Shown one piece after another: positions 26,739 through 39,226 of a stretch of DNA of 64,000 nucleotides. The notes beneath the pieces were generated by a model, which did not search any database, was not told the DNA's origin, and was given only the letters and a program-made list of their open reading frames with translations. The stretch lies in the sequence record NC_054924.1; one strand, given 5' to 3'. This DNA is from Escherichia phage vB_EcoM_Lutter. A program made the position numbers and the translations under genes. Position 1 is the stretch's first letter. Each line of letters opens with the position of its first letter.

Positions 26739-28835
26739 TTATCCTTGAACGAACTTGTAAGGCATGTTTGCAATATCTATGCAAGACGCAATAATTCCAA
26801 GAGATGATTCTACTTTCTGTTTAACATTTGATGAAACAAATGATGCAAAGTCAACTCTGTCTTCTATTTCAATATCACCTGTCATTGCAACCAATTCACC
26901 AGTTTCCATTAAATGGTCTCCATCATAGATTACCGATTCGGTGAGCTCTTCCGTGGTCATAACTTCAGCTTGAATGAGTTTTGTATTATTAGATGTTGTT
27001 CCGTCATTATTAGAAGCATCAGTTATTTTATTAACTTTGACCATCAATCCACGCGGTAGAATAACTTCAGCTTCTGTTGCTATTCCGAGACTTCCTGGAT
27101 ATACAACATTAACTTTATGAGCTCCATCAATTGCCCATCCTATTTGAACTTTAACGTATTCAGGATTTTCTTTATACGCTCTTATTTCGTTTGGATTAAT
27201 AGTTATTCCTTCTTCATTTTTATCAACTGTTAATTCATTGCGAGCTTCTGGTTCTAAAAGACCAATACCAGCATGTGTAATTCCAAAACGTCCAAAAATG
27301 ATAGGAGTTAAAGAAGTAGATACAAAATTTCTGAAATAGAATACTTTATTTTTAACTAGTGCTTCGTATATAGGAGCAGTCATACTTTGAGCACGATAAA
27401 CTGTAATGCCTTCTGGTATACGATCACCATTTTCAAAAGCAGAATCTAAATTAGTTATAGCAGCTTCAATTTCTTTTTCACTCATTACTTCATAACGTTC
27501 TGGATCATAACGACCCAAAAGAAGATTATTGATGTCAGTATATCCTGAACCGCAATACTCTCTAATGCCACGCTTTTGTGATGGAGTATATTTAGAACCA
27601 TCACGGGCAATAGTAATATCAATCATTGGACCTGCACCAATTCCAGAGAAACTATAAATCATTCTTTTGAGGAATTTAGTTTTTGTCGCGTTCCAGGAAT
27701 TTTTAGTTATTTCTTCCCAGACTTCATCTGGCTGTCCTTTACGGGTTTTATTATGTTTATCAAGCCAAGTATCTTTATATTCTTCAAATAATTGATTAAC
27801 AGCTGCTGCGTATTTCTCTAAACATTTTATTGAAGTAGTCGGTTCATTTTTAATCGCATTAAGAATTACATCTTTAATTTTTTCAGAAACTTCATTAACC
27901 TCACTTTTTGAAAAGAATTTATAGTCATAATGAAGTTCATCTGCAGTTCCTTCGGCAATGATTTTTGCTGCCTTAGTTTTAGAAGCTAATGAATTAATTC
28001 CAATTTTCATTTCTTCTGCTTCGGGAATTAAAGGTGCAGTAGCTGGTTTATTAAAATTAGCTGCTGTAGATTCATACTTCTGGAATAATTCACTTTCAAA
28101 TCTAGAAGACTCTAATGATTGACTTTGTGCAATTGCTCTACGGGAAATTTTAACTTTAACGATTACAGCTTGGTCAGAACGTTTATCATTTTCTTGTGCA
28201 ATAGATGCTGCAATTGCCTCATTTTTAGTTACTTGAGCTCCAGTATCTTTATTGATATAAACATCACCGACCTTCGATTCAACTTTAGTAAAGAGCTCAG
28301 TACTAATTTCCGGAACCCCTGGAATGTCTTCTAGTGATACATTTTTGCGATGTATAAGAATATATGCATACTTTTTATCATAATCCCAGAGTTCCTTAAG
28401 AAGGACGTATCTGCCACCTGAACGACTACGGATAAGTCTATCAGCAATAACTTGAATTTGTCGAGCTTGACCAGCAGTTTTAGACTTAAGAATACGGAGC
28501 ATACAGGCATCAATTTTATACTGACGCATTGTTTGCATTGCAACAGTAAAAACCGAATTGATATAATTAATTGGGCTTGGACCAAGACCTTTCAATTTAG
28601 CAATTGAACCTTTAGCGGTTAATGTAAAAGGAACAATATGCATCATTTTATCGCCCATCTTTAAATCGCGATTAGTATCACCTCCAGATGTATAGGTACA
28701 TAAACGAAAACCTGGTTGTTCAATTGCGTCATCAACATGAACTGAAAAAATTTGTGGTATTTTCTTCTTTGGATTTAAGTTTGTAATTGGAAGAGTAGTA
28801 TCTTCGTCAAATAATTCTGTAATTAGTTCCATCAT
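26739..28835 (-). CDS. alt: Alt, head-packaged mono-ADP-ribosyltransferase
   Basis: 698 aa; N-terminal region and ART-like C-terminal half as in T4 Alt; late promoter upstream. Confidence 0.9.
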   Translation of the reverse strand: MMELITELFDEDTTLPITNLNPKKKIPQIFSVHVDDAIEQPGFRLCTYTSGGDTNRDLKMGDKMMHIVPFTLTAKGSIAKLKGLGPSPINYINSVFTVAMQTMRQYKIDACMLRILKSKTAGQARQIQVIADRLIRSRSGGRYVLLKELWDYDKKYAYILIHRKNVSLEDIPGVPEISTELFTKVESKVGDVYINKDTGAQVTKNEAIAASIAQENDKRSDQAVIVKVKISRRAIAQSQSLESSRFESELFQKYESTAANFNKPATAPLIPEAEEMKIGINSLASKTKAAKIIAEGTADELHYDYKFFSKSEVNEVSEKIKDVILNAIKNEPTTSIKCLEKYAAAVNQLFEEYKDTWLDKHNKTRKGQPDEVWEEITKNSWNATKTKFLKRMIYSFSGIGAGPMIDITIARDGSKYTPSQKRGIREYCGSGYTDINNLLLGRYDPERYEVMSEKEIEAAITNLDSAFENGDRIPEGITVYRAQSMTAPIYEALVKNKVFYFRNFVSTSLTPIIFGRFGITHAGIGLLEPEARNELTVDKNEEGITINPNEIRAYKENPEYVKVQIGWAIDGAHKVNVVYPGSLGIATEAEVILPRGLMVKVNKITDASNNDGTTSNNTKLIQAEVMTTEELTESVIYDGDHLMETGELVAMTGDIEIEDRVDFASFVSSNVKQKVESSLGIIASCIDIANMPYKFVQG

Positions 28836-28885: not shown

Positions 28886-29073
28886 TAGTAATCTAGTGGT
28901 AAGAGAGTACGATATATTTCAAACTTTGGTCCTTTTTCATAGGCATCAAATGTTTCTGTAAATTTATTATAAGCGTATGCATCTACAAATTCGAGAATGA
29001 CTTGTGATACAGAAGTAGAAACATCTCCACCTTCTTTTTGAGCAATGACAATTGTTTCTAAGTAAGCTTTCAT
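28885..29073 (-). CDS. Hypothetical small protein
   Basis: 62 aa ORF, start overlaps ligase stop. Confidence 0.5.
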   Translation of the reverse strand: MKAYLETIVIAQKEGGDVSTSVSQVILEFVDAYAYNKFTETFDAYEKGPKFEIYRTLLPLDY

Positions 29074-30533
29074 AGACCAGTTACCTCATGAAAATCACCA
29101 AATACATCCTCGAATGTATTAGCTTTAGTTTTATCTTCACGTAAACGAATCGCAATCGGAAGAAATAATTTAACGTAATCAGTGCGGCCATCAGATTTTA
29201 ACCAACCGTTGCATTCGCACTCTAGAATTTTTCCAATATAATAATTTTGGTTTTCCATAATGCGAGTACGGTCAAGTTCATGTGATTTTACACCGGCTTT
29301 ATCTTTTAAGCCTGAACCAGCATTTACCTTAATTTTTCCACACTCTGACTCAAGAATAAATCCACCCGCTTTAGTAGGGTCTTTACGGTGAGGATAAATT
29401 CCTACAATTTTTAAATCAACATCAATTACTTCTTTAAATTTATAGAGATTTTTTGAACGAGCATTTTCCCATAATCCATCGATATTTTTGAGAATAATAC
29501 CTTCAAGACCTTGGTCAATATACTTTTTATAAATTACCTTAGCTTCATCTAGGTTATTTACTACCTGGTTTTCAATTAAAATTACTTTATCATAGCCTGA
29601 TGTCATTTGTTCTAGTTTAGAAAAACGTACATCATATTTTAAACGAAACGCCGGAAGACCGTATATTTCTACCAACGGGACATAATCCCAGACCTGAAAC
29701 TTCATGCATTGAGCTTCTTTTTCGGAAATGGTTCCCTTTAAAGATTTATTAGCGATTCCATTAGAAGTAGTACGTGATTCAGCTACTTCGGCGAATTCTT
29801 TGGCTTTACTAATTTCAGGATAAGCATCAAAAAGAAAATCTAGGCCTTCTGGCTCCTTTTTAACTTGCTCATGGTATACCAATTCGCCATCAATTAACAC
29901 GCCTTCTGGATGAATCTGGCGGGCTTCAGCGGTCATTTTGATTAATTCTTCCTTAAGAAGATCTAATCCTAGATATTCATTACCGGCTCGTGATAAAAGA
30001 CGAACATCATCTAATTCATCACCTCTGACTTCGGCAAAGCACCGAGCCCCATCAGCTTTTAACTGGGCAAAGGCTGGAAATTTGATATTCTTATTAATGC
30101 CTTTTTCATCATAAGAACTTGCCAGCATTTGAGGTTGTTCAGGAATTAAACCTGGCCAAACTTTGTTTGCAATAGATACTGAAGCACCACATTCAAGGTC
30201 TCGCATCATCACTCGACGCAAAACTTCAGCATCATCTTTTTTACCATCGGTGATATATCCAGTTAATTCCTCAATTGCTGCATTTCCAGTCAATTTCCGA
30301 GTAGCTAATGTGAATTCAATGAAGTCAAGCATATCGGTAAGAGTCAACATTCCAAAACCCTGGGTAGCAATACCAGGTTTAGGCCATTTCTTGATATAAT
30401 ACTGCAGCCCACGAGAATAAGTCAGACGATATACTCGTTTAAGCAATTCATTATCTTTATTCTTTTCAAGAATTGCTTGCTTCTGCTTAGTTGAACCAAT
30501 AGATGCTATTTCGTTCAGAATTTTAAGAATCAT
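29070..30533 (-). CDS. 30: ATP-dependent DNA ligase gp30
   Basis: 487 aa; sequence MILKILNEIASIGSTKQKQAILEKNK... recognised as T4 DNA ligase. Confidence 0.97.
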   Translation of the reverse strand: MILKILNEIASIGSTKQKQAILEKNKDNELLKRVYRLTYSRGLQYYIKKWPKPGIATQGFGMLTLTDMLDFIEFTLATRKLTGNAAIEELTGYITDGKKDDAEVLRRVMMRDLECGASVSIANKVWPGLIPEQPQMLASSYDEKGINKNIKFPAFAQLKADGARCFAEVRGDELDDVRLLSRAGNEYLGLDLLKEELIKMTAEARQIHPEGVLIDGELVYHEQVKKEPEGLDFLFDAYPEISKAKEFAEVAESRTTSNGIANKSLKGTISEKEAQCMKFQVWDYVPLVEIYGLPAFRLKYDVRFSKLEQMTSGYDKVILIENQVVNNLDEAKVIYKKYIDQGLEGIILKNIDGLWENARSKNLYKFKEVIDVDLKIVGIYPHRKDPTKAGGFILESECGKIKVNAGSGLKDKAGVKSHELDRTRIMENQNYYIGKILECECNGWLKSDGRTDYVKLFLPIAIRLREDKTKANTFEDVFGDFHEVTGL

Positions 30534-30799
30534 TGTTCATCCTTCAGAGTTTGATTTACAGCTCTATTATAAATCAATTCATCATTAAGCTCAGTTAAAG
30601 ACCTATGATATGTAGTTCTAACTTTATTTCCTTGCATCCAGTGCTTGATATAAATGAAACCTTGCTCTACACATTTTTTAAAAATTCGTTCGTCTTTTTG
30701 AGCTCGGAATTCTGGATTGCATCTAAAAAATTGATTTACGTGACCGTAATCACGTGTAGTATTACCTTCATTTTCATAAATAGTGTGAACAACAAACAT
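30530..30799 (-). CDS. Hypothetical protein (30.1 position)
   Basis: 89 aa ORF; ATGA-type overlap with neighbours. Confidence 0.6.
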   Translation of the reverse strand: MFVVHTIYENEGNTTRDYGHVNQFFRCNPEFRAQKDERIFKKCVEQGFIYIKHWMQGNKVRTTYHRSLTELNDELIYNRAVNQTLKDEQ

Positions 30800-31638
30800 T
30801 AGAATGCTCCTTGGAAAATATTATCACCACAAGTAGGTCTATTATACAAATACTCTATACCGCCGGGTTTAATATAGTTCCATGTCTGAAACGGATGTGT
30901 CTGATATGGATGATATAGATGATTATAAGGATTAAATCCAGGAGTTCTCCAGGTAGTGTTCCAACGAAAAGAATCGTTTTTAATCATCTTTTCAATTACA
31001 TCTTTTATAGCTTTTTCACTATCAAAACTTTCTTTATTTTCCTTTGGTGAAAAAAGCTTATTCTCTACATCGTTCCATGTATAAACTCGCTGAGCAGTTT
31101 TTGGAATACTGTCACGTTCCCCTCGAGCCATCCAATAAACAGGAACACTTAATATTTCACTCGCGTGATCGCAGTGGTGAGCGAGATCGTCAATATAACA
31201 AATTACGTTATATTTCTCTTTTGCCTTTTTGAACAACTCTTCTTTTGAAGAATCATGACCACACATCAGTACTTCTGAGAAGGCACCAGGAAAAAGAGCA
31301 TTCAAATTAAATTGACGATTCAGCAGAGCGTCAATAGAATCACCCAGCGCTGTAACAGCTACAAAATTATAATCTTCTTTTAATTTGTTAATTACACACA
31401 GAGCATCTTTATATGGAGACAAGTAACGAATAAAATCTGAACGATTGTATTTTTCAATTAACTTGACACCAAGTTCTTCATCACAATTAAAAAGTTTACC
31501 AGGAGAAATAAATTTTTCATCTTGGATCATTTTTAAAATATGTTCCAACGGAAGATTATATTTCTGAGCAAAATAAGGAAGGCCTGATTGCCAGCTTAAA
31601 CACACTCCATCAATATCAGTTAAAATAGTAGGCTTCAT
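30799..31638 (-). CDS. HAD-superfamily phosphatase/nucleotidase-like protein (30.2 position)
   Basis: 279 aa; N-terminal LTDIDGV matches the HAD DxDGT/V nucleophile motif. Confidence 0.7.
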   Translation of the reverse strand: MKPTILTDIDGVCLSWQSGLPYFAQKYNLPLEHILKMIQDEKFISPGKLFNCDEELGVKLIEKYNRSDFIRYLSPYKDALCVINKLKEDYNFVAVTALGDSIDALLNRQFNLNALFPGAFSEVLMCGHDSSKEELFKKAKEKYNVICYIDDLAHHCDHASEILSVPVYWMARGERDSIPKTAQRVYTWNDVENKLFSPKENKESFDSEKAIKDVIEKMIKNDSFRWNTTWRTPGFNPYNHLYHPYQTHPFQTWNYIKPGGIEYLYNRPTCGDNIFQGAF

Positions 31639-32093
31639 AGAGAGTCTCTTAATAGGTTTAACACATCAATAAATTCAGCTTCGGTTAGTATTGTATCATC
31701 TTTTGTTAGACCACTAGCCATGCTGTGCTTCAAAACTTTTCCTTTCGAGGCTTGTAATGCATCACGAAAGCCCTTGTTTTGGATCGCTGCTTCAAAATAT
31801 GCATTTGTGTATAATTCTTTCCACGCCGGGGAGTATCTTGAAAATGGAACTCCAAGCCAGAAGAGGGTTCCACGGTCCTGAGCTCTTGCATAAGACCTTC
31901 CAGCTTGTTGGGCGGCAAGCCCGGATAACCCAAATATACGACGTTGTTGTTCAACGTTTTTCACCTTGCATCCTTGGAGGAATCCTTCAAGACCTCCAAA
32001 TTGAATACCATCCATAACGAAAGGCCATTGGGCGAAATTACTTAATGCACATGATGGCCACCTAAAATTGCTTCTAATCTCTAACTCAGACAT
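31635..32093 (-). CDS. NADAR-domain (YbiA-like) protein (30.3 position)
   Basis: ATG at 32093 (ORF-track start 32099 is TTG); motif WPSCALSNFAQWPFVMDGIQF...E.F typical of NADAR/DUF1768. Confidence 0.7.
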   Translation of the reverse strand: MSELEIRSNFRWPSCALSNFAQWPFVMDGIQFGGLEGFLQGCKVKNVEQQRRIFGLSGLAAQQAGRSYARAQDRGTLFWLGVPFSRYSPAWKELYTNAYFEAAIQNKGFRDALQASKGKVLKHSMASGLTKDDTILTEAEFIDVLNLLRDSL

Positions 32094-32292
32094 TTTCAAT
32101 GCTTATAATTTCAACATCAGCCCAATGACCATAGCAAGGAAGACGAAATTCAACTGGCCAGTTAGGGTCCTTTTCTAATATAATAGACTCAACTCGTGGT
32201 TCTTCACGTTCATCAGTATATGGATTTTTATCTGTTACTTTATATGTGACCTTAATGTACTGAATTCCAAAAATCTTATTAATTATATTCAT
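32086..32292 (-). CDS. Hypothetical protein
   Basis: 68 aa ORF with ATG start in the tightly packed early cluster. Confidence 0.5.
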   Translation of the reverse strand: MNIINKIFGIQYIKVTYKVTDKNPYTDEREEPRVESIILEKDPNWPVEFRLPCYGHWADVEIISIENV

Positions 32293-33910: not shown

Positions 33911-34266
33911 TGCCTGCGCAAGCCCTCAAGGGGAACATAGGTTTTTGGATATTTAACGACCAGGATAACCATAAACCCGTCATCATACCTTATAGCTCTT
34001 ATCTGTTGCACACCGTTAGCTTAAAGGTTCCGGGTTCGATTTCTCGAGGATAAGATATATACTGATGGATATATAGGCCTTGAGGCGTACTCCCGATTGG
34101 CCATCACCTCGGGGTAGCATGCACTTGCCGCTATAAGAATAACATTCAAGAGGTACACCGTAAAACTGCCGGGGTCTTAAAACTATAATGATTCGCAAAT
34201 CATTAATCAGACAGTTCGACGGCTCCTCGATTTTAGCTCACACTAAGGCAGTGAATCTCCAGTAAA
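33911..34266. other. GC-rich noncoding island between rIII and the 30.x ORFs, function unassigned
   Basis: About 355 bp without a convincing ORF; locally GC-rich against an AT-rich genome; multiple inverted repeats. Confidence 0.3.
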
Positions 34267-36516: not shown

Positions 36517-36749
36517 AGTACGCCATACACCCTTTGTGCTTCAACTAATCCATCAAAATCCAGTTTAAGATGCGATATTTGATCGCCATCGCCTGGATTC
36601 ACAATTACTAATACTGAACGAGGAGTTTCGGTAATAACACGAACCGATGTTTCAGGAAATCGTTCAGAAACCTTATTTACCAATTCCTGAGCAAATAGTT
36701 TAACTTTTTCTTGGAATTCTTTAACAGTAATTGGTTTTTCACTTAGCAT
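36513..36749 (-). CDS. Hypothetical protein (cd.2 position)
   Basis: 78 aa ORF. Confidence 0.55.
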   Translation of the reverse strand: MLSEKPITVKEFQEKVKLFAQELVNKVSERFPETSVRVITETPRSVLVIVNPGDGDQISHLKLDFDGLVEAQRVYGVL

Positions 36750-37270
36750 GTTGATCCCAGCTCCTTACTTTCAACGTTTTTAACTAATTTGACAGAAACT
36801 AATTCAGCATCTTGAGTAATCATTACCGGGCCTTCTTCATACTCTTCAAGATATTCTAGAGCTTTCTTTTTAGCTTCTTCCTTCGTATCAGTTTGAGCAT
36901 AGATATAAAACATACAACCAGTAATACCTACTACTTTCCACTTAATTTCTTTATCAGTTTTAATTTCAAATTTACTGACAGAATCATCTTTTTGAACTTC
37001 TTCGAAAAAAGAATATTCTAACATATAAGCAATTGAAAATAACGGGCTAACTTTATAAGATTCGCCCATTACATCAACAGCTTTATACCAACAATCATCA
37101 ATTTCGCGTTTAATGCTAATAACATTTTTCGCAGGATCTATTTTTACTTTAAATGAATTTTCCCCAATAAACTGGGCAATTCGTTTATTAGCCCCGCAAG
37201 TTTCATTAAAAATATCTTTATATCCAGCTTTAAAGCGATAAACCTTATCTTCTTCAAACCATTCGCTCAT
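36743..37270 (-). CDS. Hypothetical protein (cd.3 position)
   Basis: 175 aa ORF, GAGGAAA SD, early promoter upstream. Confidence 0.6.
   Translation of the reverse strand: MSEWFEEDKVYRFKAGYKDIFNETCGANKRIAQFIGENSFKVKIDPAKNVISIKREIDDCWYKAVDVMGESYKVSPLFSIAYMLEYSFFEEVQKDDSVSKFEIKTDKEIKWKVVGITGCMFYIYAQTDTKEEAKKKALEYLEEYEEGPVMITQDAELVSVKLVKNVESKELGSTC

Positions 37271-38001: not shown

Positions 38002-39226
<1,225 letters not shown>

Follow-up and report, generated by a model that had tools for sequence, protein, structure and literature searches.

The locus and its genomic setting

The window considered here is a 64-kb stretch of the genome of Escherichia phage vB_EcoM_Lutter (NC_054924.1), a T4-like phage belonging to Tequatrovirus. 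Over the 3 kb surrounding gene 30.3, identity is 99.6% with Escherichia phage vB_Eco_BGP and 95-99% with hundreds of Tequatrovirus genomes. The local gene order, alt, alt.1, 30 (DNA ligase), 30.1 (DUF3045), 30.2, 30.3 and 30.4 through to 30.8, all on the minus strand, is that of T4. The following features of the locus are needed from the start.

31635..32093, minus strand: adfN (T4 gene 30.3), coding for a full-length, 152-aa phage-type NADAR DNA ADP-ribosylglycohydrolase
32086..32093, minus strand: 8-nt overlap ATGTCTGA, in which the 30.3 start codon lies within the last codons of 30.4, an arrangement of translational coupling seen in the sequence and the ORF coordinates
31635..31638, minus strand: ATGA overlap of the 30.3 stop codon with the 30.2 start codon, likewise from the sequence and the ORF coordinates
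29070..30533: DNA ligase (gene 30), co-directional with 30.1-30.4
26739..28835, minus strand: alt, 698 aa, with the PF03496 domain

The reading frame of interest runs on the minus strand from an ATG at 32093 to a stop codon at 31635 and encodes 152 amino acids. The ORF listing reaches further upstream, to a TTG at 32099; we have taken the ATG as the start, as in the T4 annotation. With its overlaps on both sides, adfN belongs to a series of small genes that point the same way and are translationally coupled. The original prediction had placed an ORF here, quoted from it the peptide WPSCALSNFAQWPFVMDGIQF and named it 30.3. The ORF is real and contains the peptide as residues 12-32 of its product, and the name is borne out by synteny with T4 and by the identity of 151 of 152 amino acids (99.3%) with the T4 protein (NP_049816); at the DNA level the gene is 99% identical to that of T4. 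The sole amino acid change, I125M, sits two residues past the catalytic H123, in a column of the family alignment where Met is the consensus and both Met and Ile are common. Certain annotations of the gene give only 126 aa (for example in slur14). We considered whether these might represent a lesion and rejected the idea, since the ORF is intact there and the start-codon call alone differs.

As to transcription signals, nothing between 32.1 and 35.0 kb fits the MotA-box middle-promoter pattern, and sigma-70-like and terminator-like sites are not commoner in the region than in shuffled sequence.

T4 annotation also includes 30.3', a 75-aa overlapping ORF described as "internal translation in a different reading frame", which corresponds to 31730..31957 (minus strand) within adfN. 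In the present phage its ATG start is replaced by ACG. Relative to T4, 6 of the 75 codons of the 30.3' frame carry amino acid changes and only one of the 152 codons of the 30.3 frame does, which argues for selection on 30.3 and not on 30.3'. On this comparison of sequences, 30.3' is probably no real gene.

Several other differences from T4 were encountered in the window. A 175-aa ORF (36743..37270, minus strand) lies between cd.2 and cd.3 in an insertion of about 520 nt absent from T4; it has no Pfam match and belongs with phrog_3710, of "unknown function". A 106-aa ORF (38906..39226, minus strand) between pseT and pseT.1, in an insertion of about 314 nt also absent from T4, matches phrog_2364, again of unknown function. 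Between 30.9 and rIII (about 33986..34142) there is an insertion of about 155 nt relative to T4, with no convincing ORF. The alt allele is 100% identical to that of phage slur03 and only about 69% identical to a T4 alt allele (record KJ477685). Its product has 698 aa here versus 682 aa in T4, part of the gene cannot be aligned to T4 DNA, and alt as a whole is far more divergent from T4 than the genes on either side with their 97% identity.

Membership in the NADAR family

The 30.3 product matches the Pfam family Phage_30_3 (PF08010) over the whole model (positions 1-138) with 235.3 bits against a curated cut-off of 36 (E=2.2e-70). The relation of this family to NADAR is less easily seen. The protein has no match to the Pfam NADAR model (PF08719) even at E<=1, scans against NCBIfam and PADLOC return no NADAR or DarG match for it, a phmmer search of PDB gives a chance match only, and the PHROGs label for the family is "unknown function".

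The connection appears at the level of the family. In an alignment of 52 homologues reaching down to 35% identity, 8 of the 52 members match PF08719 directly (the best at 1.5e-7), so the PF08010 and PF08719 families are linked transitively. When the family profile is compared with PDB, E. coli YbiA comes out as the best match (E=0.014), the aligned stretch being LSNFa..dG....E..Q..K. This alignment covers exactly the motif on which the original prediction relied, and E36 and K43 fall on the Glu and Lys of YbiA. The "YbiA/NADAR signature" ascribed to the ORF stands, with one reservation: it does not extend to a direct PF08719 match and is upheld through the family profile, through the 8 of 52 members and through the fold described below. 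The resemblance of gp30.3 to NADAR is remote, and the family profile, member-wise scans and structure were all needed in order to see it.

As a separate observation, weak matches to the PADLOC model PDC-M42C occur in 32 of the 52 family members (best E 3.4e-5); the model stands for one component of a candidate defence system that is uncharacterised. These sequence matches suggest that the candidate system may contain a NADAR-type protein.

Fold and catalytic residues

An AlphaFold2 model of the 30.3 product, built from the 52-sequence alignment, has a pLDDT of 92 and a pTM of 0.87, and the top three Foldseek matches of this model agree with a NADAR fold. The fold search proposed along with the original prediction thus came out in its favour: the predicted model, Foldseek and the profile comparison confirm the NADAR fold together with the catalytic residues. 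The positions concerned are as follows.

31986..31988, minus strand: Glu36 codon GAA, the catalytic glutamate, equivalent to E43 of the Phytophthora NADAR (PnNADAR) and invariant in the 52-sequence alignment
31965..31967, minus strand: Lys43 codon AAG, the phosphate-coordinating lysine, equivalent to PnNADAR K50 and E. coli C7 NADAR K95 and shared by at least 90% of the aligned family members
31725..31727, minus strand: His123 codon CAC, in the last beta-strand (E120-123 in the model) and invariant in the family alignment
31641..31682, minus strand: C-terminal alpha-helix, residues 138-151, a confidently modelled helix that is intact here

The triad E36/K43/H123 maps to E43/K50/E125 of PnNADAR. 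The spacing of 7 between Glu and Lys is the same in the 30.3 product, in PnNADAR (E43/K50) and in C7 NADAR (E88/K95), the reference residues of the latter two being those published earlier (PMC11543638). Histidine at the third catalytic position is the hallmark of the phage (gp30.3) NADAR subfamily, where YbiA-type proteins have Glu and DarG1-type proteins Asp (PMC11543638, PMC11125620). The 30.3 product shows this feature: His replaces Glu/Asp in its last beta-strand.

The third residue also bears on a different reading of the protein, namely that it scavenges soluble ADP-ribose-derived molecules (immune signals or toxic by-products) or, in the manner of YbiA, N-glycosides of riboflavin intermediates. 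The fold is indeed common to YbiA, which the literature reports as a riboflavin-intermediate N-glycosidase, and some distant homologues of gp30.3 lie near Nudix or PRPP-synthetase genes. However, the histidine stands where the YbiA family is defined by Glu, and the experiments with the T4 protein described below show de-ADP-ribosylation of DNA and a phenotype specific to DarTG1. In our opinion such a scavenging role is very improbable, though some soluble molecule may serve as a secondary substrate.

What is established for the T4 protein

The function of this gene is already known from T4, whose gp30.3 was recognised as a NADAR in 2023. NADARs were defined as guanine-ADPr hydrolases, with a phage subfamily noted among them, by Schuller et al. 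in 2023 (PMC11543638), and the reversal of DarT1-made guanine modification was established in vitro and in vivo in 2024-2025. G-ADPr is hydrolysed by the purified T4 protein (NP_049816.1) and T-ADPr is not, and E. coli exposed to DarT1 is not rescued by it (2024 Toxins paper, PMC11125620); cytidine-ADPr is also left in place by the T4 enzyme (2026 paper, PMC12945103). The Methods of PMC11125620 give the T4 NADAR construct as "residues 1-208", yet the cited NP_049816.1 is a 152-aa protein; this is probably a typo.

Phage crosses traced resistance to DarTG1 to gene 30.3, which was renamed adfN, for anti-DarT factor NADAR (Johannesman et al., bioRxiv 2024; Nat Commun 2025, PMC11825919). Deletion of adfN in T4 or T2 causes a loss of plaquing of about 4 logs on DarTG1 hosts, and RB69 is rescued by ectopic AdfN; DarTG2 is not countered (PMC11825919). 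DNA modified by DarT1 loses its ADP-ribose when treated with purified AdfN, but not with the E36A mutant (PMC11825919). A 2025 transposon-sequencing preprint (HIDEN-SEQ) points the same way, since 30.3/adfN insertions were lost only with DarTG1 present.

The original prediction suggested that the ORF encodes a NADAR enzyme reversing guanine ADP-ribosylation as a counter-defence against DarT-type toxins. The fold and residues found here agree with that, and so do the experiments with the T4 protein. Like the fold search, the in vitro assay and the deletion mutant on DarTG hosts that were suggested as checks have in fact been published, with positive outcome, for the T4 protein, to which the present one is 99.3% identical.

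In vivo the mutants are less clear-cut. E36A is inactive in vitro but still partially rescues RB69, and K43A is impaired and also retains partial rescue (PMC11825919). Either residual activity or a non-catalytic contribution would account for this. The second option recalls a further possibility, that AdfN is a stoichiometric inhibitor, a mimic of the antitoxin, which binds DarT1 as AdfA(R164H) does or acts like the non-enzymatic NADAR of Vibrio phage ICP1. Besides the partial rescue by E36A and K43A (PMC11825919), it can be said in its favour that another phage NADAR is reported to work without enzymatic activity (PMC11481870). On the contrary, a two-hybrid assay detected no association between AdfN and DarT1 (PMC11825919), purified enzyme clears ADPr from DNA while the catalytic mutant fails to (PMC11825919), and conservation within the family is hard to reconcile with a purely binding role, E36 and H123 being invariant and K43 nearly so. 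We give inhibition by binding practically no chance.

The preferred explanation, then, is that the gene is a functional adfN whose product strips DarT1-made ADP-ribose from guanines of phage DNA, and we regard this as highly likely. That the I125M copy would behave like T4 AdfN is judged by analogy, from the 99.3% identity. When a T-even phage infects a DarTG1 host, DarT1 would ADP-ribosylate guanines in the phage DNA and so block replication. AdfN would hydrolyse the N-glycosidic bond between ADP-ribose and guanine by means of Glu36, Lys43 and His123, and with unmodified DNA restored, replication would proceed. It would do so neither by binding DarT1 nor by acting on the thymidine adducts of DarT2, and may be described as an orphan, antitoxin-like NADAR enzyme.

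RB69, other natural lesions and the relation to Alt

The intact C-terminus deserves comment, since the C-terminal helix is needed for full activity and truncated AdfN is less active (PMC11825919). By alignment and translation, the RB69 allele has one extra T (+1) after nt 410, which leads to ACT-TGA and to a 137-aa product without the helix modelled at residues 138-151. The site of this frameshift is equivalent to 31683/31684, where the copy studied here reads ...ACC GAA GCT... and has no frameshift. RB69 keeps a full-length alt despite its truncated AdfN.

Public data contain several truncated forms of gp30.3 in T4-like phages such as SV76, NR1, UGJNEcP4 and RPN226. In other forms from those phages, gp30.3 is joined to pieces of neighbouring families (Gp30.7, Phage_30_8, DUF2883). 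These forms suggest that adfN has repeatedly been lost or rearranged in nature, RB69 being one such case.

The RB69 case is relevant to the second half of the original prediction, according to which the protein could protect the phage from its own ADP-ribosyltransferase Alt. In the wider form of this idea, gp30.3 is a self-protection or regulatory partner of Alt or of ModA/ModB and removes their ADP-ribose from phage or host targets. It is not without appeal. The alt gene, with its PF03496 domain, lies on the same strand about 2.8 kb downstream of adfN, Iyer et al. 2022 describe T4-like NADARs as early genes expressed along with ARTs, and both Alt and gp30.3 are widespread across the T4 superfamily. 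Nevertheless, adfN is dispensable on K-12 hosts despite the presence of alt, and the sole reported phenotype requires DarTG1; RB69 is viable with truncated AdfN and full-length alt. The known substrates differ as well. Alt is a protein ADP-ribosyltransferase of the R-S-E type (PF03496), and for the T4 NADAR activity is demonstrated only on guanine-ADPr, with none on T- or C-ADPr. R-S-E exotoxin ARTs target arginine. Furthermore, homologues of gp30.3 outnumber those of Alt (1509 versus 1221 phage records; in Klebsiella phages 272 versus 163), and distant members of the family occur in jumbo-phage-like contigs without an ART within 6 kb. We also tried the phyletic co-occurrence of Alt and gp30.3 as a test. 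It proved uninformative, since both genes go back to the ancestor of the T4 superfamily; all it shows is the wider distribution of gp30.3. Dispensability without DarTG1, retention of alt by RB69, guanine adducts as the only known substrates and the wider phyletic spread all speak against a partnership with Alt. We abandoned this part of the prediction and consider it most unlikely to be correct.

Comparison with related proteins and origin

Returning to AdfN as an enzyme against DarT1-made modification, its closest relative is T4 AdfN itself. The two have the same length, the same place between 30.4 and 30.2, the same E36/K43/H123 and an intact C-terminal helix, and represent the same gene in a sister phage. 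They differ by the conservative I125M and in that the surrounding genome is a Tequatrovirus of the slur03/vB_Eco_BGP type and not T4.

The differences from DarG1 (represented by the G. lovleyi NADAR, PDB 8bat, and E. coli C7 NADAR) are more numerous. Gene 30.3 is an orphan which does not stand beside a DarT gene: among the ORFs flanking it none matches a DarT model, and no ART is found nearby except Alt, which is of the exotoxin type (PF03496). The protein has no N-terminal extension (152 aa compared with 219 residues in the solved DarG1-type chain), it has His123 where DarG1 has Asp, and the PADLOC DarG models do not match it. Unlike DarG1, T4 AdfN is unable to neutralise DarT1 in uninfected cells.

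YbiA (PDB 2b3w) and the Phytophthora NADAR (PDB 8bau) represent PF08719 families and share about 18-19% sequence identity with the 30.3 product, which lies below the Pfam NADAR threshold and has His where they have Glu (the E125 position of PnNADAR). YbiA-type and generic NADARs also remove C-ADPr, while the T4 enzyme does not, and YbiA serves riboflavin metabolism as a housekeeping enzyme. Two further T4 proteins come from the same lineage and share the purpose of neutralising DarTG, namely AdfM (the Tk.4 macrodomain, anti-DarTG2) and AdfA (61.2, a DarT1 binder). AdfM is a macrodomain directed at thymidine-ADPr and AdfA binds the toxin and thereby inhibits it, so that their folds and targets are unrelated to those of AdfN. 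Judging by T4 map position, the genes of both presumably lie outside this 64-kb stretch.

Concerning origin, the published phylogeny puts DarG1-type NADARs nearest to AdfN (PMC11825919). When we compared structures and profiles, the DarG1-type structure scored below YbiA and PnNADAR. Descent of AdfN from DarG1 (the origin as a "co-opted antitoxin") is therefore not independently supported here; the function is not contradicted. Whatever its origin, the family has a wide distribution: homologues of gp30.3 are found in 1,509 phage records, from T4-like phages of Escherichia, Klebsiella, Aeromonas, Acinetobacter and Vibrio and also from phages of Caulobacter (CcrColossus), Brevundimonas, Rhizobium, Desulfovibrio and Ralstonia.

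A possible T-even partner and gene 30.2

AdfN barely rescues T5 and Bas25 and fails to neutralise DarT1 when E. coli is uninfected (PMC11825919, PMC11125620), and hence the simple picture of a free-standing glycohydrolase is incomplete. A preference of AdfN for hydroxymethylated DNA was put forward in the preprint (Johannesman et al., bioRxiv 2024) but refuted in the published version: T4-GT7, whose DNA is unmodified, is still resistant to DarTG1, and the resistance depends on adfN (PMC11825919). Its authors suspect an additional T-even factor (PMC11825919).

It is conceivable that AdfN needs a T-even-specific partner for full activity on replicating phage DNA, although we hold this only tentatively and would sooner bet against it. 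If true, such a partner would explain the failure of AdfN in uninfected cells and with T5 and Bas25. The description of the DarTG1 screen names adfN alone and, in the region shown there, flags no other non-essential gene; to the extent that this region is representative, one would rather look for a T-even protein that is essential or has a redundant copy. A component of the replisome or a ssDNA-binding component would be an example, gp30.2 being less likely.

The neighbouring gene nevertheless invites attention.

30799..31638, minus strand: gene 30.2, 279 aa, annotated as "hypothetical", with no Pfam match

The N-terminal part of gp30.2, about 195 residues, is conserved in 1,451 phage records and is followed by a variable C-terminal tail. 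Among nine divergent phage homologues D8-x-D10-G11, K132 and D151 are invariant, which fits HAD motifs I, III and IV, and some homologues have weak but mutually consistent Pfam matches to HAD_2, NT5C and Hydrolase_6. A profile of the nine sequences gives nothing significant against PDB, and the single-sequence AlphaFold model has a pLDDT of 34.5. Judging from its sequence motifs, gp30.2 is probably a HAD-type phosphatase or nucleotidase.

We considered whether adjacency makes gp30.2 and adfN a functional pair and rejected it, as 64 kb separate their homologues in Aeromonas phage 31. A conserved downstream partner was likewise discarded: in jumbo-phage-like contigs a 254-aa gene follows the NADAR gene, and it is unrelated to gp30.2. 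We do not propose gp30.2 as a co-factor of AdfN, and the candidates based on adjacency are narrowed accordingly.

Implications

A reading of the sequence by itself recovered a real counter-defence gene from a short motif, while adding nothing new to the biology. The annotation of the family could be updated, as almost all of the 1,509 records still say "hypothetical protein". For the phages themselves, an intact adfN predicts resistance to hosts carrying DarTG1, which is relevant for the choice of therapeutic T4-like phages.
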